A stretch of DNA of 64,000 bases from the IMG/VR virus record IMGVR_UViG_3300032050_010539, one strand, 5' to 3'. A program made the position numbers and the translations under genes. Positions 3,390 to 49,104 of this stretch are shown here, in pieces. The notes under the pieces are model-generated. The model was not told where the DNA came from. It saw only the letters and a program-made list of their open reading frames with translations, and ran no database searches. This DNA is from a virus. Numbering within the stretch: the first letter of the stretch is position 1; each line of letters opens with the position of its first letter.

Positions 3390-4181
3390 GTGGTGCCTGC
3401 TATTAACCACATAGTGAGGGGCATACTACTAAAGCGTCGCTGTCTAAACTCATTATTCATTGTGATTAACCTCGAGTCATTAATTAGAACACGGGCCCCT
3501 GCGCTATTAGGCGCTCTGCCACTATTAGATTGGTGGATAATACAATTACTCAGTAGTACTGATTACCCTGTCGTAGTTCTCAATAGGGATATACATTCTG
3601 TTAGAGTGCCCGGCCCCTACGACATGATAGATAGTAGGGGTAATTTTATCATGCGCTCAGAATTAGATAGCTGGGGTCTAGAACCACTGCAGAGAGCCAT
3701 CCTCTCTACTAAGGCGGAGGGCAGTATAAGCGCATACGTACTGCGGTCAGGCAGCTCTAGTACTATTATAATCTACACTGCATTCTCTCGAGACAATAGT
3801 CTAGATCAAGAGGTACAATTAGAGGTCCCGCAGAATACAACGGTAGTAACTATCCGCTTCAATTCAACTGTGCCCTGGACACTACGCTATATAGAATCGC
3901 CCCCCCGCTTAGATGTACCAATACCAGATGAGTACATAGAGCTAGAGATAGACGCGGGCACTCATATTATGAGTACCATATCGTCTATATATCTGAATCC
4001 ATCACTACCAGTAAACACAATATCGGGCCCTGCAGCAATACACATGATACCCCAAGGTGACGTATTCTATGTCGCTATAAATGAGGATCCTAATTTAGTC
4101 AAGGCTATACAACCTGACATAGACATAATAGAATACACAGAGACTAAGAATATGTGTATGGAGGTGACACTTGGCGCGTAA
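3390..4181 (+). CDS. hypothetical protein (true start may be ~3623, MIDSRG)
   Basis: ORF abutting terminase; 5' end uncertain. Confidence 0.55.
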   Translation: MVPAINHIVRGILLKRRCLNSLFIVINLESLIRTRAPALLGALPLLDWWIIQLLSSTDYPVVVLNRDIHSVRVPGPYDMIDSRGNFIMRSELDSWGLEPLQRAILSTKAEGSISAYVLRSGSSSTIIIYTAFSRDNSLDQEVQLEVPQNTTVVTIRFNSTVPWTLRYIESPPRLDVPIPDEYIELEIDAGTHIMSTISSIYLNPSLPVNTISGPAAIHMIPQGDVFYVAINEDPNLVKAIQPDIDIIEYTETKNMCMEVTLGA

Positions 4182-42205: not shown

Positions 42206-42469
42206 CTAAACAATAATAGTGATGTGTCCTTCTTGATTATCATGGGGCAGTAGATTGCGCGCAATACTCCAGATCAACTTAGTCTCCTCGATATTAAAAT
42301 TAGCGGATATCATGTACGTGTCAGTAACGTCAGAGTTATAGAGAGGCGCTAGGAGACAGGGTTGATTATTATCATGCCAATAGTAGACGACGATACTCTT
42401 GATACCCAGAGAGCGCAACTTATTGAATAAGGCAGCCCGCTCTGTGACATGTTTATTTTGTGTTTGCAT
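42206..42469 (-). CDS. hypothetical protein, 87 aa
   Basis: Packed ORF. Confidence 0.55.
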   Translation of the reverse strand: MQTQNKHVTERAALFNKLRSLGIKSIVVYYWHDNNQPCLLAPLYNSDVTDTYMISANFNIEETKLIWSIARNLLPHDNQEGHITIIV

Positions 42470-43208
42470 AGTTCAGTATCTCTTGCTTAATGATATTTAT
42501 ATCCTTCCTGAAGTACCACATCATACTACCTACAGGGACGGGGTTCCACATACGAGTCTTAACTACCTTATCGATGTCACTATCTCGCAGGGCTTTCTTA
42601 CTGCGAAGTAGGGCCTCGAGGTCACGTTTAACATCCTCTTCATCTATAGTAGTCTTATAGAAGACACCTCTCTCTACCTCTATTGGATTAAACGTAGTTA
42701 CAGTAGGATGGCCCCGCCAGTTATAGACAGCCCCTCTGTAATTGGCTATAGTGGCGTCGAGACCGTGTATGGCCTTAACTGCTTCGCTACCTGCTAGTAA
42801 TAGAGGTACGCCAGTTGGTAGTGCTGTGAGCTCAGGGAGTAGCCAGGTATCCCGACAGCGGGAGCGATGAATATCTTTAACTGTCTTGTCTCGAGGGGAG
42901 CACTTTATAGCATTAGTGAAATACACTAACTTATTAATGGGGGGCCCATCCCACGTGGGGTCACACTCTATAGCCCAATATAAGCAACGCCGGAGGAAGG
43001 CCCCGGCGCCACTAGTATCTTCACTGTTAGTGCCGGGAGCGAGGCTCATCTTAGTGGCCTCCTCACGTTTACCAGGATAGGCTGAGATAGCTACTAGTAT
43101 TACATCTTCAATAGGTTTCTCAGACTGACCACTCACTGCCTGCCTAGTAGATAGACTACATACAGTACACTGCGGGTTGAATTGTACGGCTTGGTATAAC
43201 GCTGTCAT
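42453..43208 (-). CDS. uracil-DNA glycosylase (family 4-like, Fe-S)
   Basis: CTVCSL, YPGKREE, GAG..L, YFTNAIKC, C...WLL.EL, TFNP. Confidence 0.8.
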   Translation of the reverse strand: MTALYQAVQFNPQCTVCSLSTRQAVSGQSEKPIEDVILVAISAYPGKREEATKMSLAPGTNSEDTSGAGAFLRRCLYWAIECDPTWDGPPINKLVYFTNAIKCSPRDKTVKDIHRSRCRDTWLLPELTALPTGVPLLLAGSEAVKAIHGLDATIANYRGAVYNWRGHPTVTTFNPIEVERGVFYKTTIDEEDVKRDLEALLRSKKALRDSDIDKVVKTRMWNPVPVGSMMWYFRKDINIIKQEILNYANTK

Positions 43209-44581
43209 TGAAAAACTGGGCCTGAAACCCCGCCCTCCGCTATCGCTAAAGGGCGGCTTTATACAAGTTAGTGAGAAACAATTAAACCGTTAGAACGACG
43301 AATTAACTGAATCTTGCTAACAACTATTTGTCCCAATCGTTTCCAACTGGTATCGCTTACAGATAGCTGTTTTTCGGTATCTCCACTAACATAACCAATC
43401 CCTTTGGGAGAAGAAACTAAATCTCCTTTACGGAACCCATGTCTTGTGGTAGAGCCACCATATTTACGTCGTTTACCACCTTTAGAAAAAACCATCAGGT
43501 GAAGTTGACGACGACTAATAGGAGGACGTTTGATAATAGCAAAGGGAGCGTTTGTTACTTTAACAGAACCCTTCCAATCATGTCCATGTCCATTATAAGT
43601 ATGGAATGGCAAATAATCTAAAAAGTGAAAACAGGCAAGAGCAATTCCATCGTTAGCATGACTTTCGGGTGATTGTTCTGCTTTATTTTTAGACTTTTCT
43701 AGTCGCAAATGTTTTCTGAGATTAGAAGTTTGCCAACCAAAGCGAGTATGGACTGTTGCAAACTGAGACAGTTGCTCAATAGTCCATTTCTGTCCAACCA
43801 TAACCGGCGAAAAACCTTTTCCAGACTTAGCTCCTTTCCTGCCCGAAGTTAAATCAACATCAGCTTTAACGTACTCAAAATAAATATCGGTAATTGGATA
43901 GATTTTGGTTAGTTCGGAAACGACTCGAAGTTCAAGTTGACGATTAGCTCTGATTGAAGGGGCCAACTTAGATTTTCTTCTGTTGGAGAATCGTTTTTGT
44001 CTATGCGCCCGTGACTTAAAAGGAATGTGGCGGTTGATACGCCGTCCCCTTCTACCCCGTCGCATTAATCGCCGATTATCCATGCGTTCTCTTACTCGCT
44101 TAAAGGGAAGTTCTAAGTGAGCTTTCCAGAGAGTGAAAAGAGAGGATTGAACGCCAATTCCAGAGAATAATTTACCCGGGTCAATACCAATGGCAATCGG
44201 TTGGGTTTTACTATCGGAAGGCTCGGTGATTAACTGGACATAGAAAATATCTAAGTCGTTGAATTTACCGATAGCTTTTCCTTCCTTAATCCACCGTCTA
44301 GCCCGACTAGGTTTAGTCGGCATTAACGGTTTTCCGTCTTTTGAGATTACAGGTACTCTTTGCATGGGAGATAATCCTTAAGAGTAAAGTTTAAGTCCCT
44401 TAGCCCACCAAACAAACTATGTCTTGTCTTACAACGTCTCACCAATGAGACTTAGAGGGAATCCGAACTAGGGAAGTATTCAGAGGTCTGTAAGATTGTT
44501 CGGCTCAACGGGCTAGTCTCTACTTGCGTTGCCTAAATTGGTCTAGGCAAGCCCCGTCTCTTTTAGGGTGGGGTTAGTGAC
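43209..44581 (-). mobile_element. IS200/IS605-superfamily OMEGA element (omegaRNA + isrB, no tnpA)
   Basis: 5' end GTCACTAACCCC-hairpin; distal GC hairpin plus TTTTTCA abutting ATGA. Confidence 0.85.
43268..44365 (-). CDS. isrB: IsrB RNA-guided nickase (RRXRR family without HNH)
   Basis: PLMP domain, RuvC-I GIDPG, Arg-rich bridge helix RRLMRRGRRGRR, RuvC-II YFE, RuvC-III SHANDG; no HNH; 365 aa. Confidence 0.88.
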   Translation of the reverse strand: MQRVPVISKDGKPLMPTKPSRARRWIKEGKAIGKFNDLDIFYVQLITEPSDSKTQPIAIGIDPGKLFSGIGVQSSLFTLWKAHLELPFKRVRERMDNRRLMRRGRRGRRINRHIPFKSRAHRQKRFSNRRKSKLAPSIRANRQLELRVVSELTKIYPITDIYFEYVKADVDLTSGRKGAKSGKGFSPVMVGQKWTIEQLSQFATVHTRFGWQTSNLRKHLRLEKSKNKAEQSPESHANDGIALACFHFLDYLPFHTYNGHGHDWKGSVKVTNAPFAIIKRPPISRRQLHLMVFSKGGKRRKYGGSTTRHGFRKGDLVSSPKGIGYVSGDTEKQLSVSDTSWKRLGQIVVSKIQLIRRSNGLIVSH

Positions 44582-44600
44582 CAGTTAGCTGGACATAGAA
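44380..44600 (-). ncRNA. omegaRNA 1 (scaffold from 44581; guide from the flank 44582-~44600)
   Basis: Conserved ~200-nt block upstream of isrB, present three times in the window. Confidence 0.8.
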
Positions 44601-44720
44601 AATATCTAAGTCGTTGAATTTGCCGATAGCTTTTCCTTCCTTAATCCACCGTCTGGCCCGACTGGGTTTGGTGGGCATTAACGGCTTTCCGTCTTTTGAG
44701 ATAACAGGAACTCTTGCCAT
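44582..44720 (-). pseudogene. isrB: truncated isrB (5' ~46 codons)
   Basis: MARVPVISKDGKPLMPTKP...DIFYVQLT cut off by the end of element 1. Confidence 0.85.
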
Positions 44721-44734
44721 GGAGATAATCCTTA

Positions 44735-44955
44735 AGAGTAAAGTTAAAGTCCCTTTCCGCAACACAATCAAGATGTCTTGTCTAACAACGTCTCACCAAT
44801 GAGACTTAGAGGGAATCCGAACTAGGGAAGTATTCGGAAGTCTGTGCCAGATTGTGTCTCGATGCGGTAGTCTCTACTTGCGTCGCCTAAATTGGTCTAG
44901 GCAAGCCCTACCCTAAAAAGGACGGGGTTAGTGACACTCCAGATATAGGGTAGGG
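44735..44955 (-). ncRNA. omegaRNA 2 (scaffold from 44935)
   Basis: Homologous to omegaRNA 1 and 3. Confidence 0.75.
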
Positions 44956-45103
44956 CTACAGACAATCCCAGAGATAGAGTAGGGTTAATGACCATTATCA
45001 GCCCTGTCCTTTTAGGGTAGAGTTAGTGACAGATCTTGCTCCTGTCTTTTTAGGGCGGGGTTAGTGACATTTACTCCTGTCGCCCTAAGGCGGGATTAGT
45101 GAC
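44936..45103 (-). repeat. five tandem degenerate copies (28-38 bp) of the omegaRNA 5' end/hairpin
   Basis: GTC(A)..(A)CCC...hairpin units starting at 45103, 45068, 45030, 44992, 44963. Confidence 0.75.
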
Positions 45104-46185
45104 TAAGTCTGAATTTCGAAGCTTTCGGGATCTATGCCTTTATTGAATTCGATTACAGCTTCGCGGGCTGAGGTGTGCTTGGGATCAACACGTACTGCAT
45201 GGTAGTCATTAGTGCTGGGGCAACGCATGGTTAGGATATGCGCGTCCTCGCCACCGAAGTCACCACGGATGATGTGTAACTCGTACTCATTACCGTAACC
45301 TACGTAGCTAGTAGTATTATAGGTGCTGATGATCTCACTATCCAGGCGCGATAGAATATTCTCGTAGCCCAGCGCCTCAATGAGAATACGGCGATGCTCA
45401 GAGTTCATGCCCTTCTCATCATCAAGTAACCATTTGGGATCCCAGGTGGAGCTATGACACTGCATGAAGGCCGGTAACGGGGTACCGTGCCATAACCACA
45501 ATTCAACGCCATCAGAGAACTTAATTGCGGGCTCACCATCGCAATGAATATCGCCGTCCAGAGTATAATGTACCTTGGGCCGCTCACATACAATACATAA
45601 CTCCTCATAGGTGTATACCCACGATAAGTTTTCAGCAATGAGCATGTACTTATCGTAATCCTCCATAGTCACGCCGAGTACCTCGACGCTGAAGTTAGCG
45701 AATGCAGCAAAGCTCATACGGCACTCGTAAGAGAAGTGACCATTAGCAATATAATTGCTACACTCCTTATCCTTAATAGGATCAATGGGGCCCCGCTCTG
45801 CAACGTAAGCATCGACGAGTTTCTGGAGTACAGCCTCGTTCTTAGGAGTAGCGGGCTTACGCTTAAAGAACTCCTTGATTAATGTGAGTTCAGTCTTAGT
45901 AAACTTAGTTTTAGTCTTATTACCCTTAACGATACTCTGCTCTTCCTTCTCAGCTTTATTGAGAAGAGCAATAATACTGGCCGCCATGATGGGCGAGCTA
46001 GTGAAGATAGTACGCGGACAGTCGAGATCTCCTAAGTCACAGTGTTTCTTGAGTAGGGCATATAGTTCAGTAACTGCTTGGCGGGCTAGCACTTTATCGA
46101 AGGGGCGATCCACCATACGGATCCAGCGCTCCTTGTAGGTAGGAATTAGCTTTTCATGTTCCGGAGTTAATTCAAGATAAGTCAT
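45103..46185 (-). CDS. DUF6745-like protein
   Basis: CIVCERP...HCDGEPAI.FSDG..LW.WHG, N.EHRRILIE..GYE, MRCPST...RVDP motifs. Confidence 0.8.
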   Translation of the reverse strand: MTYLELTPEHEKLIPTYKERWIRMVDRPFDKVLARQAVTELYALLKKHCDLGDLDCPRTIFTSSPIMAASIIALLNKAEKEEQSIVKGNKTKTKFTKTELTLIKEFFKRKPATPKNEAVLQKLVDAYVAERGPIDPIKDKECSNYIANGHFSYECRMSFAAFANFSVEVLGVTMEDYDKYMLIAENLSWVYTYEELCIVCERPKVHYTLDGDIHCDGEPAIKFSDGVELWLWHGTPLPAFMQCHSSTWDPKWLLDDEKGMNSEHRRILIEALGYENILSRLDSEIISTYNTTSYVGYGNEYELHIIRGDFGGEDAHILTMRCPSTNDYHAVRVDPKHTSAREAVIEFNKGIDPESFEIQT

Positions 46186-46944
46186 TGAAAAATTAGGTTT
46201 GAAATCCCGCCCCTTAGCGATAGTGGAGGGCGGCTTTACATAAATTAATAAGAAACAATTAAAACGCTAGAACGACGAATTAACTGAATCTTGCTAACAG
46301 TTATCTATTCCAATTGTCTCCAACTGGTATCGCTTACAGATAGCTGTTTTTCCATTAACATAACCAAGTCTTTACTTGTCTTTTGCCCCTGTCCAAAATT
46401 TCTGCTTCCACACAGATATTTCAGCCTTTTTGATGGCAATTTCCCATTCTAAGTCGACTATTTCTCGCTCGAGTTCAACAATTTTACTATTAACTCGCTT
46501 TAAATCGGCGATAATTTCTTGTTTATTGCGTCTATCGTAGATAGTCAGTTCATCCTTTTGTAATTTCTCAAGAATAGAGTCTAGGAAAGCGGTTAAATTG
46601 GCCGAGGGATTGTCTATATTACCTAGACGCATCAATACCTGTACCGCTTTGACAACGTCTTGCTCATAAGCTTCTCTAGAGGGGTAATCTTGGGGTTTTT
46701 TGAGATTTAAATCGTCAATGATATTCATAGGAGATAATCCTTAAAAGTAAAGTTAATGTCCCTTCCCGCAACACAATCAAGATGTCTTGTCTAACAACGC
46801 TTTACCAATAAAGCTTAGAGGGAATCCGAACTAGGGAAGTATTCAGAGGTCTGTGCCAGATTATGTCTCAATGCGGTAGTCTCTACTTGCGTTGCCTAAA
46901 TTGGTCTAGGTAAGCCCTACCCTAAAAAGGACGGGGTTAGTGAC
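46186..46944 (-). mobile_element. non-autonomous IsrB-derived element carrying a 118-aa cargo ORF
   Basis: omegaRNA + unrelated ORF + frameshifted isrB 3' remnant (46246-46370) + distal end TTTTTCA|ATGA. Confidence 0.8.
46372..46728 (-). CDS. cargo coiled-coil protein, 118 aa
   Basis: Starts at the isrB start position (AGGATTATCTCC-N-ATG); no IsrB motifs. Confidence 0.7.
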   Translation of the reverse strand: MNIIDDLNLKKPQDYPSREAYEQDVVKAVQVLMRLGNIDNPSANLTAFLDSILEKLQKDELTIYDRRNKQEIIADLKRVNSKIVELEREIVDLEWEIAIKKAEISVWKQKFWTGAKDK

Positions 46945-46962
46945 ACTCATTCGCCAAAAAGG
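46743..46962 (-). ncRNA. omegaRNA 3 (scaffold from 46944)
   Basis: Homologous to omegaRNA 1 and 2. Confidence 0.75.
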
Positions 46963-46979
46963 CCGGCACTAGGCCGGCC
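46956..46979 (-). terminator. intrinsic terminator
   Basis: GGCCGGC/GCCGGCC hairpin followed by TTTTT. Confidence 0.65.
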
Positions 46980-47004
46980 ACGGTAGAGGTTGCGGTAATT
47001 AGTA

Positions 47005-47379
47005 CTAGTCAGCTACAGAGCGAAAACCAGAAGGAGTATACTCTTGCTGAATACCGATCTTGTAGAGCCCCTGCTTAAAGATAATGGGACCGTGTTCTTC
47101 GTGCTGAAGACGGGCCGTACTAGCATTTACGCGGAGGTACAGAGTACCACTATCATCAATACGGAAGAGTTCAGCAGCCTTATTTTCACCGATGATTGCA
47201 TTGTTGTTGCCCGTTTCAATAGGAACAACCTGATGTTTATGGCCAGTGACTTCACCGTATGCTAAGACAGTATTATCAACACGAGTAGCTTTCGATAAGT
47301 CGATGCTGTCTTCTGGAATACGTTGAATAAGTACGTCACCTTGACGAGCGAATTTACTGAAAGTAGGAATAGTAGACAT
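47005..47379 (-). CDS. RQGDV/GEVTGH-H family protein (usual partner of DUF6745)
   Basis: RQGDVLI, LAYGEVTGHKH, L.HEEH, G.Y....QQEY. Confidence 0.75.
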   Translation of the reverse strand: MSTIPTFSKFARQGDVLIQRIPEDSIDLSKATRVDNTVLAYGEVTGHKHQVVPIETGNNNAIIGENKAAELFRIDDSGTLYLRVNASTARLQHEEHGPIIFKQGLYKIGIQQEYTPSGFRSVAD

Positions 47380-47474
47380 TGATTATAACTCCGAGAATTT
47401 ACTGACCCCACGGACTGGGGATATTGACATTAACCTAGTTTTTATTAAACCGGGTTGACTAGAAACCCGGGCTG

Positions 47475-48563
47475 TTACCTTACTACGGTAACATTCTCAG
47501 TGAGTAGAGCTCTAGTAGATAAACCATTAACCTCCTTCTCTAGGAGAAGTATAGATATAGTCTTATCTCCTATTATAAAGGCTCTAACAGTAAGTTGGAT
47601 AGGTCCCTCCCCTCGTAGGACTGCTGTAAGATCACAGGCCCGCAGATTAATAGAGGCCTCACCAGTAATAGTGCACGGTATAGAGGCGGGCTCCCCTGCA
47701 CCCTTCACTAATAGATTATTATTATTAGTGAAGTGCAGTTGTATGGCCTGCCCCACACTGGCTCCTGTACTCTGCCAATTGATAGCACCCAATAGTAATC
47801 GAGTATCAACTGTAGTTGATGCACGGAACTCAGCATCAGGTGCTCTATCGAAGTGGGGTATCTTATCTGCTTCCTTACCGGTGAGTATAGAGAGGGAGCC
47901 CCGCGCGCTATCTAATATTAGTCGACGAGGAGCGCGGCCCACTGATAAGGTGAGGGGACTCTCTAGATAAGATACTAACTGAAGCTGACGGGAGGTCAGG
48001 TTAGCAGACCAACGAGCAATTGGGTTATCAGCCCACGATACCTGTACATAGGCACTAGCCGCTACACGACGAGTAAGAGAACAGCCATCAGGCGTGATAT
48101 CCAGACGTATGTAATTCTCCTTACTCTTATAGTCAGTTATAAGACGCATAGCCCCGGCTATCAGATTACTCTCTAGTATGCCCTCACTCTCTAGTACCAC
48201 AGGAGTAGCAGGGGAGCCATTATAGATAGGAGTAGAGTTAGTACCATATGCACCTAGTCTATAGACTATTTTATCCTCTTCTATATCGATAACAAGCGAG
48301 GTGGGTGTACCCATACGACAAGTTAGATTAAGGAGGGGCCCGCCAGGTACTAGGATATCTGCATCATCTGCCTGCACTGGTAGTTTGAGTACTAGGCTAT
48401 GAGAGCCCAGGTGATTACCACTCAGTTGCATTTGTCCTTTACTTATAGTCATACGCACACAAGATGCGTCAGCTCGCGGGCTGTCTTTATCTAGGCAGGA
48501 CACTACTGCCTTTAATGCGGCTACGTACTGAGGTACATTAATTTGGGCTACCGATACTGTCAT
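47475..48563 (-). CDS. DNA sliding clamp (DnaN/beta-like)
   Basis: 362 aa, alternating alpha/beta pattern, ILVPG..LL motif; replication cluster with a DnaX-like loader. Confidence 0.55.
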   Translation of the reverse strand: MTVSVAQINVPQYVAALKAVVSCLDKDSPRADASCVRMTISKGQMQLSGNHLGSHSLVLKLPVQADDADILVPGGPLLNLTCRMGTPTSLVIDIEEDKIVYRLGAYGTNSTPIYNGSPATPVVLESEGILESNLIAGAMRLITDYKSKENYIRLDITPDGCSLTRRVAASAYVQVSWADNPIARWSANLTSRQLQLVSYLESPLTLSVGRAPRRLILDSARGSLSILTGKEADKIPHFDRAPDAEFRASTTVDTRLLLGAINWQSTGASVGQAIQLHFTNNNNLLVKGAGEPASIPCTITGEASINLRACDLTAVLRGEGPIQLTVRAFIIGDKTISILLLEKEVNGLSTRALLTENVTVVR

Positions 48564-49104
48564 TGCCGTCGTTATCAGGATCTATATTGAATGAAGAGAA
48601 GTCCATGATATCCATATTATCACCGTCGAGGGTAATGCCCTGATTGATTAGAGCTTCTATGGCCTCTCTTCTCTTATCCTTTGCGTAGCTTTCAGTATAG
48701 CTATTGAGTACATGCACAGCACGCCACACTCGACTTAGGAACTTATCCATCTTCTCCTTATTTAACGTAGCGTAGTTAAAGGCGGCCCTGTACTCTAACA
48801 CTATAGCTACATCATTTGGGTCATGTTTTATATAAGCATAGAGATAACCAAAGTCCAGCACTAGGGCCATATGGTCAGACATAACCAACATATCCACATG
48901 ACTCATTGGATTAAACTGTACCCATTCGTAACGAAACTCACCTATACCGGTATCACTTACGATATCCAGATAACTCCTATCATTAATAGCTACCTGCTGG
49001 GCAAAATCATCTGTTAGTGGGAAGTTACTTAATGAAGCCTCGATGGCCTTCATGGGGTTATATAGCCCCAGTAATCGTAATATTTTATCCATTAATGTGA
49101 CCAA
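48538..49104 (-). CDS. hypothetical protein, 188 aa
   Basis: Packed ORF with acidic tail. Confidence 0.6.
   Translation of the reverse strand: MVTLMDKILRLLGLYNPMKAIEASLSNFPLTDDFAQQVAINDRSYLDIVSDTGIGEFRYEWVQFNPMSHVDMLVMSDHMALVLDFGYLYAYIKHDPNDVAIVLEYRAAFNYATLNKEKMDKFLSRVWRAVHVLNSYTESYAKDKRREAIEALINQGITLDGDNMDIMDFSSFNIDPDNDGNDSIGSPN

Follow-up and report, generated by a model that had tools for sequence, protein, structure and literature searches.

The gp175–gp174 interval of the phage genome analysed here appears to hold a lineage-specific, non-autonomous chimera of an IsrB element that arose from rearrangement at an IsrB hot-spot, a reading to which we assign a probability of roughly two in three. 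The window, i.e. the whole stretch of 64,000 nucleotides that was analysed, is part of a 78-kb IMG/VR virus record with an estimated completeness of 46%. It belongs to an Ma-LMM01-like Microcystis phage of the genus Fukuivirus, and positions 42400–48600 are 93% identical to MaMV-CH01/02, MaMV-DH01, MaMV-DC, and Ma-LMM01. All of the genes treated here are on the minus strand, on which a full-length omegaRNA is followed by a 118-aa ORF predicted to be helical, the decayed 3' remnant of isrB, the intact distal end, and the start codon ATGA, in this order (Table 1). Sequence comparisons suggest that a host gene was captured, that the resident IsrB element decayed, and that non-homologous repair then put an omegaRNA in the place of the gene's leader in a single lineage.

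Table 1. Features at the gp175–gp174 interval and in the neighbouring isrB region (positions in the window)
Feature	Position	Strand	Remarks
Intrinsic terminator hairpin of the gp175 homologue (47379–47005)	46961–46979	-	7 G-C pairs then TTTTT; T-run 46960–46956; kept in all sister phages
Guide position of omegaRNA 3, TTTTTGGCGAATGAGT	46945–46960	-	16 nt
OmegaRNA 3 scaffold, HEARO-type	46730–46944	-	Complete: element end GTCAC to ...GGATTATCTCC
118-aa ORF, predicted helical ('cargo'), host-derived Microcystis gene	46372–46728	-	OmegaRNA junction within TATG microhomology
Deletion junction GACAAGTAAAGAC	46368–46380	-	Last remnant of an older 71-nt omegaRNA stub; gives the ORF its stop codon
Decayed isrB 3' fragment	46245–46367	-	123 nt; ~85% identical to isrB nucleotides 968–1098; in-frame stop
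Distal element end	46186–46244	-	59 nt, G+C hairpin, 3' terminus TTTTTCA
ATGA: target-adjacent motif and start codon of the DUF6745 gene (46185–45103)	46182–46185	-	
Intact IsrB, 365 aa	43268–44365	-	Sole candidate trans-acting nickase in the record
OmegaRNA 1, cognate to the intact IsrB	44367–44581	-	Different lineage, ~80% identical to omegaRNA 3
OmegaRNA 2, then 131-nt isrB 5' stub (44720–44590)	44721–44935	-	

Architecture of the locus and its guide RNA scaffold

A repeat of ~219 nt was found in three copies (44367–44585, 44721–44939, and 46730–46948), and the isrB 3' end is duplicated together with the distal end (46186–46367 matches 43209–43398). The third copy of the repeat terminates in ...AAGGATTATCTCC-T-ATG and continues as the 118-aa ORF. 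As the host copies show, the element itself starts with GTCAC at 46944, and the GAGT at 46948–46945 belongs to the flank. The omegaRNA–gene unit measures 759 nt from GTCAC to TTTTTCA, has both element ends intact, and is without a nuclease; omegaRNA 3 is not located directly upstream of an iscB or isrB ORF, and the host-derived 118-aa ORF is found there instead. The structure claimed in an earlier note made from this sequence, i.e. an omegaRNA, an isrB-like ribosome-binding context, an unrelated 118-aa ORF, a decayed isrB 3' fragment, and an intact distal end, is present in every part on the minus strand.

In the neighbouring isrB region (44367–44720), omegaRNA 1 and the intact isrB lie directly after the 131-nt isrB 5' stub of the omegaRNA 2 element. 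Because omegaRNA 1 directly follows this stub, the guide of the only intact system is isrB coding sequence.

All three repeat copies match the Rfam family HEARO (RF02033) over model positions 1–211 at scores of 27–32 bits (E 5e-4 to 7e-3), which are below the gathering score of 83 bits. OmegaRNA 3 reaches 27.4 bits (E 0.007), and the two isrB-adjacent copies score similarly (29–32 bits). When 57 aligned cyanobacterial isrB upstream regions were analysed with RNAalifold, 42 consensus pairs were obtained, 35 of which show compensatory double changes; omegaRNA 3 retains 40 of the 42, and the copies that precede intact isrB genes mostly retain 40–42. OmegaRNA 3 is also 94–95% identical, without indels, to the omegaRNAs of five comparison loci (L107, L108, L103, L106, and L015); those of L107, L108, L103, and L015 precede intact isrB. 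The nearest are those of L107 and L106 (94.5–95.4%).

The ORF at 44365–43268 matches RRXRR (1.2e-52) and no HNH family in Pfam. Residues 2–361 align end to end with the solved DtIsrB (8DMB, E 3e-43), and the IDPG, FEYV, and HAND motifs are visible. With its N-terminal PLMP/RRXRR region, split RuvC, full-length similarity, and no HNH insert, the product is predicted to be an IsrB nickase. It is encoded 2.4 kb from omegaRNA 3. In L103, IsrB proteins 97% identical to the resident IsrB pair with omegaRNAs 95% identical to omegaRNA 3. Because the scaffold is intact and such near-identical pairs exist in L103, loading of omegaRNA 3 by the resident IsrB in trans is plausible. The intactness of omegaRNA 3 is no proof of selection, because the copy is young, although the undecayed state would also fit selection for function.

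Two further features of the element family were observed. Short omegaRNA 5' stubs, each consisting of GTCACTAA, the first hairpin, and ~10 variable bases, form tandem arrays of three to five units upstream of phage omegaRNA copies at two insertion sites (window 44940–45111 on the minus strand, L005 1880–1980, L107, L106, L108, and L103); such arrays are absent from the host omegaRNA copies. The loops of three element hairpins, namely the first and second omegaRNA hairpins and the distal-end hairpin, are reverse-complemented between lineages with their stems unchanged (window 46920–46940, 44560–44580, and 43225–43255; L004 4300–4321), and Blast matches these loops in opposite orientation. This pattern suggests that hairpin flipping has been recurrent in the family.

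The captured gene and the alleles of its site

Close homologues of the 118-aa protein are confined to Microcystis phages and Microcystis chromosomes. The chromosomal copies, located at two different chromosomal places, are 90–96% identical to the phage gene in nucleotide sequence, and no omegaRNA or isrB piece was found near them. An exhaustive profile-free search identified distant relatives (25–44% identical and mostly 105–147 aa in size), and those with a named source are from Microcystaceae, Cyanothece, and Allocoleopsis. The three of these distant loci that were inspected have no neighbouring genes in common and contain no IsrB gene. No significant match of the ORF was detected in Pfam, PHROG, or PADLOC; a Pfam match to DUF3287 (E 0.005) was below the family cut-off and was disregarded, and the label DUF1822, which is attached to the MaMV-DH01 homologue in GenBank, was not reproduced by Pfam. 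The protein is predicted to be all-helical (AlphaFold2, mean pLDDT 73). A Foldseek search of the model against the PDB gave no match at E <= 0.001, the Atlas structure matches were only generic long helices with no informative or nucleic-acid-binding fold, and the scores of a language-model look-up (0.82) were within the noise range.

The pairwise dN/dS values of the gene (0.3–0.86) indicate weak constraint. Host copies often carry in-frame internal deletions or a ~100-nt insertion (L013/L014 4001–4423; L017 3001–3255; proteins P0019–P0024), suggesting that the gene family is decaying or dispensable in Microcystis. In a 146-aa phage variant (L015 2501–2941), the reading frame continues into the omegaRNA stub, and part of the protein tail is encoded by former guide RNA sequence.

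Four allele types of the gp175|gp174 interval were distinguished among sister phages and contigs. Type A is empty and is found in Ma-LMM01 and in G018, the contig that holds L107; megablast coverage, as opposed to the allele sequence itself, suggests that MaMV-DC is also of this type. Type B/E (CH02, DH01, DL01, L008, L015, and L016) consists of the terminator, a leader, the gene (120–146 aa), a 71-nt omegaRNA 5' stub joined to isrB nucleotides 968–1098, and the distal end. Type C (L018–L020) has the same leader, the 118-aa gene, and the isrB 3' piece with no stub. Type D, comprising the full omegaRNA, the 118-aa gene, and the isrB 3' piece, is that of the window and of L009 and L010, two contigs from other samples with 98.6–100% identity to the window. 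The deletion junction that removed the stub is common to types C and D, and the stub is retained in B and E.

The native leader of types B/E and C is about 50–62 nt long. Because it also precedes a host chromosomal copy (L017) with no element nearby, leader and gene both represent the host type, the upstream omegaRNA being the derived state. The same copy led us to reject the idea, raised by short resemblances, that the native leader is itself a decayed omegaRNA.

The type C allele of L018 is 97.1% identical to the window over 1925 nt, a stretch that begins one base ahead of the ATG, spans the gene, the isrB piece, gp174, and the stub array, and extends into omegaRNA 2; L018 matches the window again upstream of 46951. 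Since L018 matches on both sides, the replacement of the 60 nt leader by 221 nt (46950–46730) is the only structural difference between the two. At the deletion junction, there are four G-to-A differences in 19 nt between window 46368–46386 and L018 635–653, although L018 is otherwise 97% identical.

The replacing 221 nt are made up of AT, GAGT, and the 215-nt omegaRNA scaffold, joined to the gene at the TATG microhomology. In the host, the element begins exactly at GTCAC, and the flanks before it are unrelated. At the neighbouring gp174|UDG site, the sequence in front of the phage copies is ...CTATATCTGGAGT, and L107 and L106 share the GAGT|GTCAC flank (junction CTCCTATGCC). Because GAGT precedes omegaRNA 3 as it does in L107 and L106, the omegaRNA piece seems to have been copied together with four bases of donor flank, an identity expected by chance at a probability of ~1 in 256. 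The two bases (AT) at the left junction are without explanation. We infer from these junctions, which are typical of non-homologous or microhomology-mediated repair and unlike those left by transposition, that the swap came about by such repair. An alternative route, in which a full element inserts at the ATGA of the gene itself and deletions follow, needs three events, is less parsimonious, and leaves the GAGT flank and the loss of the leader unexplained.

The history of the chimera can be proposed in seven steps, of which steps 1–3 and 5–7 rest on the comparisons, and step 4 and the consequences are what we infer. First, a small Microcystis gene preceded by its own leader would have occupied the gp175–gp174 site, and the ATGA start codon of gp174 would have served as the insertion point of an IsrB element. 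Second, this element would have collapsed to a miniature in which omegaRNA nucleotides 1–71 were joined to isrB nucleotides 968–1098 and the distal end, as in B/E-type alleles. Third, a deletion would have taken out the stub, giving the C-type. Fourth, in the ancestor of the window, the 60 nt leader may have been replaced by 221 nt from an omegaRNA of the gp174|UDG-site kind, including its GAGT flank, joined at TATG. The product is, fifth, the 759-nt unit with both ends, a structurally intact omegaRNA, and no nuclease, which, sixth, was found at this locus only and, seventh, carries a guide with no natural target. As consequences, the gene would be read by upstream read-through with an isrB ribosome-binding context, and omegaRNA 3, if made, could be bound by IsrB in trans. 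The type D arrangement was recovered in at least three contigs that were assembled separately and come from different samples, and is therefore not deleterious.

A further locus with mixed content was observed in MaMV-DL01. At gp172|gp170 (L006 505–1340), only element fragments (an isrB 3' piece and ~70 nt of omegaRNA) are present around a 192-aa ORF, an arrangement suggestive of a further degraded IsrB element that contains foreign sequence.

Targets of the guide and mobility of the unit

The guide position of omegaRNA 3 is composed of the terminator T-run, GGCGA shared with sister alleles, AT, and GAGT, the last being identical to the flank of the phage omegaRNA at the gp174|UDG site. The guide begins in the T-run of the strong terminator of the gp175 homologue, which leaves no space for an intervening promoter, so that transcription must pass through the terminator for a guide-bearing RNA to be produced; no site resembling a promoter was detected in the region.

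At all 32 distinct insertion sites in host and phage loci, the distal end has ATGA behind it, in agreement with NTGA, the published IsrB motif (as cited in PMC11237433), and with the reported jump of a host IsrB element into phage Mic1. In this phage, these four bases invariably serve as the start codon of the gene that comes next (UDG, DUF6745, or the gp170 homologue; window 43205–43208 and 46182–46185). The LMM01-type empty allele differs in sequence and reads ...GCATAAGAAAATGT, with ATGT and not ATGA. The two inspected empty alleles read ...GCATAAGAAAATGTCT, without the ATGA motif, so that empty alleles would be refractory to insertion or nicking here. Their gp174 starts with ATGTCTACC and not ATGACT (L005 about 4065–4094; L154 2985–3000). 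The B, C, and E alleles mismatch the six scaffold-proximal bases of the guide, which would be its seed by analogy with Cas9-like enzymes.

The predicted empty site consists of ...GGCGAATGAGT directly followed by ATGA, the guide-matching allele being written ...GGCGAATGAGTATGAC... This site was not found in IMG/VR or in JGI metagenomes; the left-flank pattern gave no match in IMG/VR and two in JGI metagenomes, both of which were unrelated chance matches. A search of one sister phage contig and four complete genomes of sister phages gave no site with <=3 mismatches and NTGA, no target of the guide was found elsewhere in the window, and in 17 host genomes the guide matches with <=2 mismatches were no more numerous than those of the reversed-pattern control. 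The earlier note had taken the guide to target the empty site; no natural allele, phage site, or host site matches it, the known empty alleles are without ATGA, and the reconstructed 'empty site' is valid only as the donor joint left by excision of the element. Population drive into the known naive alleles is not supported by these comparisons. Of the proposed supply of IsrB in trans from 43268, what stands is a plausible loader at 2.4 kb; the drive of the cargo through phage populations is unsupported.

The link between the omegaRNA and the gene was not seen to recur. We found 41 omegaRNA matches in 17 Microcystis genomes, and isrB, intact or degraded, comes next after every omegaRNA with a complete and readable 3' end in these genomes and in the phage and metagenome loci, with type D as the only exception. 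The omegaRNA–gene junction (tail TTTAAGG) has no match in IMG/VR, a search that possibly did not cover near-identical records. No second locus of the unit was found, and the junction was seen only in the window, L009, and L010, which represent the same locus. The proposal of a non-autonomous, cargo-carrying OMEGA element thus holds in so far as this is a nuclease-less derivative with an intact-looking omegaRNA, both ends, and a foreign ORF; the gene has not spread as cargo. Nor did it enter as such, for sister phages have the host gene at the same site with its native leader and either the 71-nt stub downstream or no omegaRNA.

It is unlikely, but conceivable, that the unit works as a non-autonomous OMEGA element with a passenger, in which a host Y1 transposase excises GTCAC...TTTTTCA, IsrB acting in trans nicks the joint, and recombination with an occupied sister genome restores both element and gene. 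Both ends and the scaffold are intact, the 97%-identical IsrB proteins of L103 pair with a 95%-identical omegaRNA, all 32 sites have ATGA after the distal end, and nuclease-less elements whose omegaRNAs rely on a trans nuclease have been described (10.1101/2023.03.14.532601). Y1 transposases are encoded by all 17 Microcystis genomes (3–22 matches each), which does not imply that they recognize these ends. However, no transposase is present in the 78-kb phage record (46% complete) and no cognate host transposase was picked out, no second copy of the unit was found, the guide starts inside a strong terminator T-run with no promoter room, IsrB only nicks, and the junction from which the unit originated is not a transposition product. 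Such a process would be restorative homing, since the donor joint ...GAATGAGT|ATGAC... matches guide 3 and has ATGA by construction; the gene would then hitch-hike on the retention system of the element, with no spread into naive alleles. That the complete chain is in operation, with read-through omegaRNA 3 loading the resident IsrB, a nick at the donor joint after excision by a host transposase, and the element and gene copied back from sister genomes, we regard as rather improbable.

The omegaRNA might instead have been taken over as a structured 5' leader that gives the host-derived gene phage-timed read-through and the Shine-Dalgarno context of isrB (AAGGA); IsrB binding to such a leader may even tie translation of the gene to IsrB levels. 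We hold this to be highly unlikely: the native promoter-bearing leader was indeed lost, the gene starts exactly at the isrB start position, and the arrangement is retained in several samples, but the dN/dS values of 0.3–0.86 point to weak constraint and the region has no promoter-like site. A role of the 118-aa protein as a new omegaRNA-binding partner replacing IsrB, suggested by its position directly after the omegaRNA and by nothing else, is extremely improbable, since all other family members in phages and cyanobacteria are without an adjacent omegaRNA, the copies in Microcystis and other cyanobacterial chromosomes have neither omegaRNA nor isrB nearby, host and distant homologues stand alone in the homologue search that the earlier note had called for, sister phages have the gene with its own leader, and no nucleic-acid-binding fold was found in the predicted structure.

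Relation to known systems and implications

In the reading that we prefer, a locally rearranged chimera, the locus shares its RNA scaffold, its ends, and the ATGA (NTGA-type) motif with IsrB–omegaRNA (OMEGA) elements of the IS200/IS605 (ISC) group (8DMB; RF02033). It differs from them in that the nuclease ORF has been replaced from the start codon by an unrelated host gene, leaving 123 nt of the isrB 3' end. Nuclease-less miniature derivatives of IS200/IS605 elements (PATE-like) that keep the omegaRNA and need a nuclease in trans have been reported (Meers et al., 10.1101/2023.03.14.532601). Like these, the locus has both ends, a guide RNA gene, no nuclease, and a possible trans supplier in the same genome; unlike them, it has a protein-coding passenger and a non-transpositional junction, and it occupies a single locus in one phage lineage and is not multicopy.

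Exchange of such an element between Microcystis and phages is seen in the jump of a host IsrB element into gp49 of cyanophage Mic1 at ATGA (PMC11237433); the genus of the host, the insertion motif, and the type of element (isrB flanked by about 207 nt on its upstream and 59 nt on its downstream side) are as in the present case. In that case a complete element disrupts a phage gene, whereas here a degraded element is fused to a captured host gene. In T-even phages, free-standing homing endonuclease genes co-convert neighbouring genes (reviewed in PMC13565253), which is the concept behind the earlier note, i.e. a nuclease system that takes linked DNA into competitors. In contrast to T-even homing, no competitor allele has the target here, and the known empty alleles are without the motif.

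It is clear that IsrB elements pass from Microcystis to its phages or the reverse, in each case with insertion before ATGA. Nuclease-less omegaRNA elements are already known; a passenger gene in the place of the nuclease would, if true, show that OMEGA elements have cargo capacity, and a cargo-carrying OMEGA element would be one step in the direction of RNA-guided gene drives that occur naturally in viruses. The locus is a well-documented rearrangement at an IsrB hot-spot and not evidence of cargo drive. A functioning passenger element, if true, would be a natural RNA-guided nickase system that stabilizes a non-nuclease gene in a phage genome, and the locus provides a ready-made natural substrate for IsrB trans-loading and nickase restorative homing.
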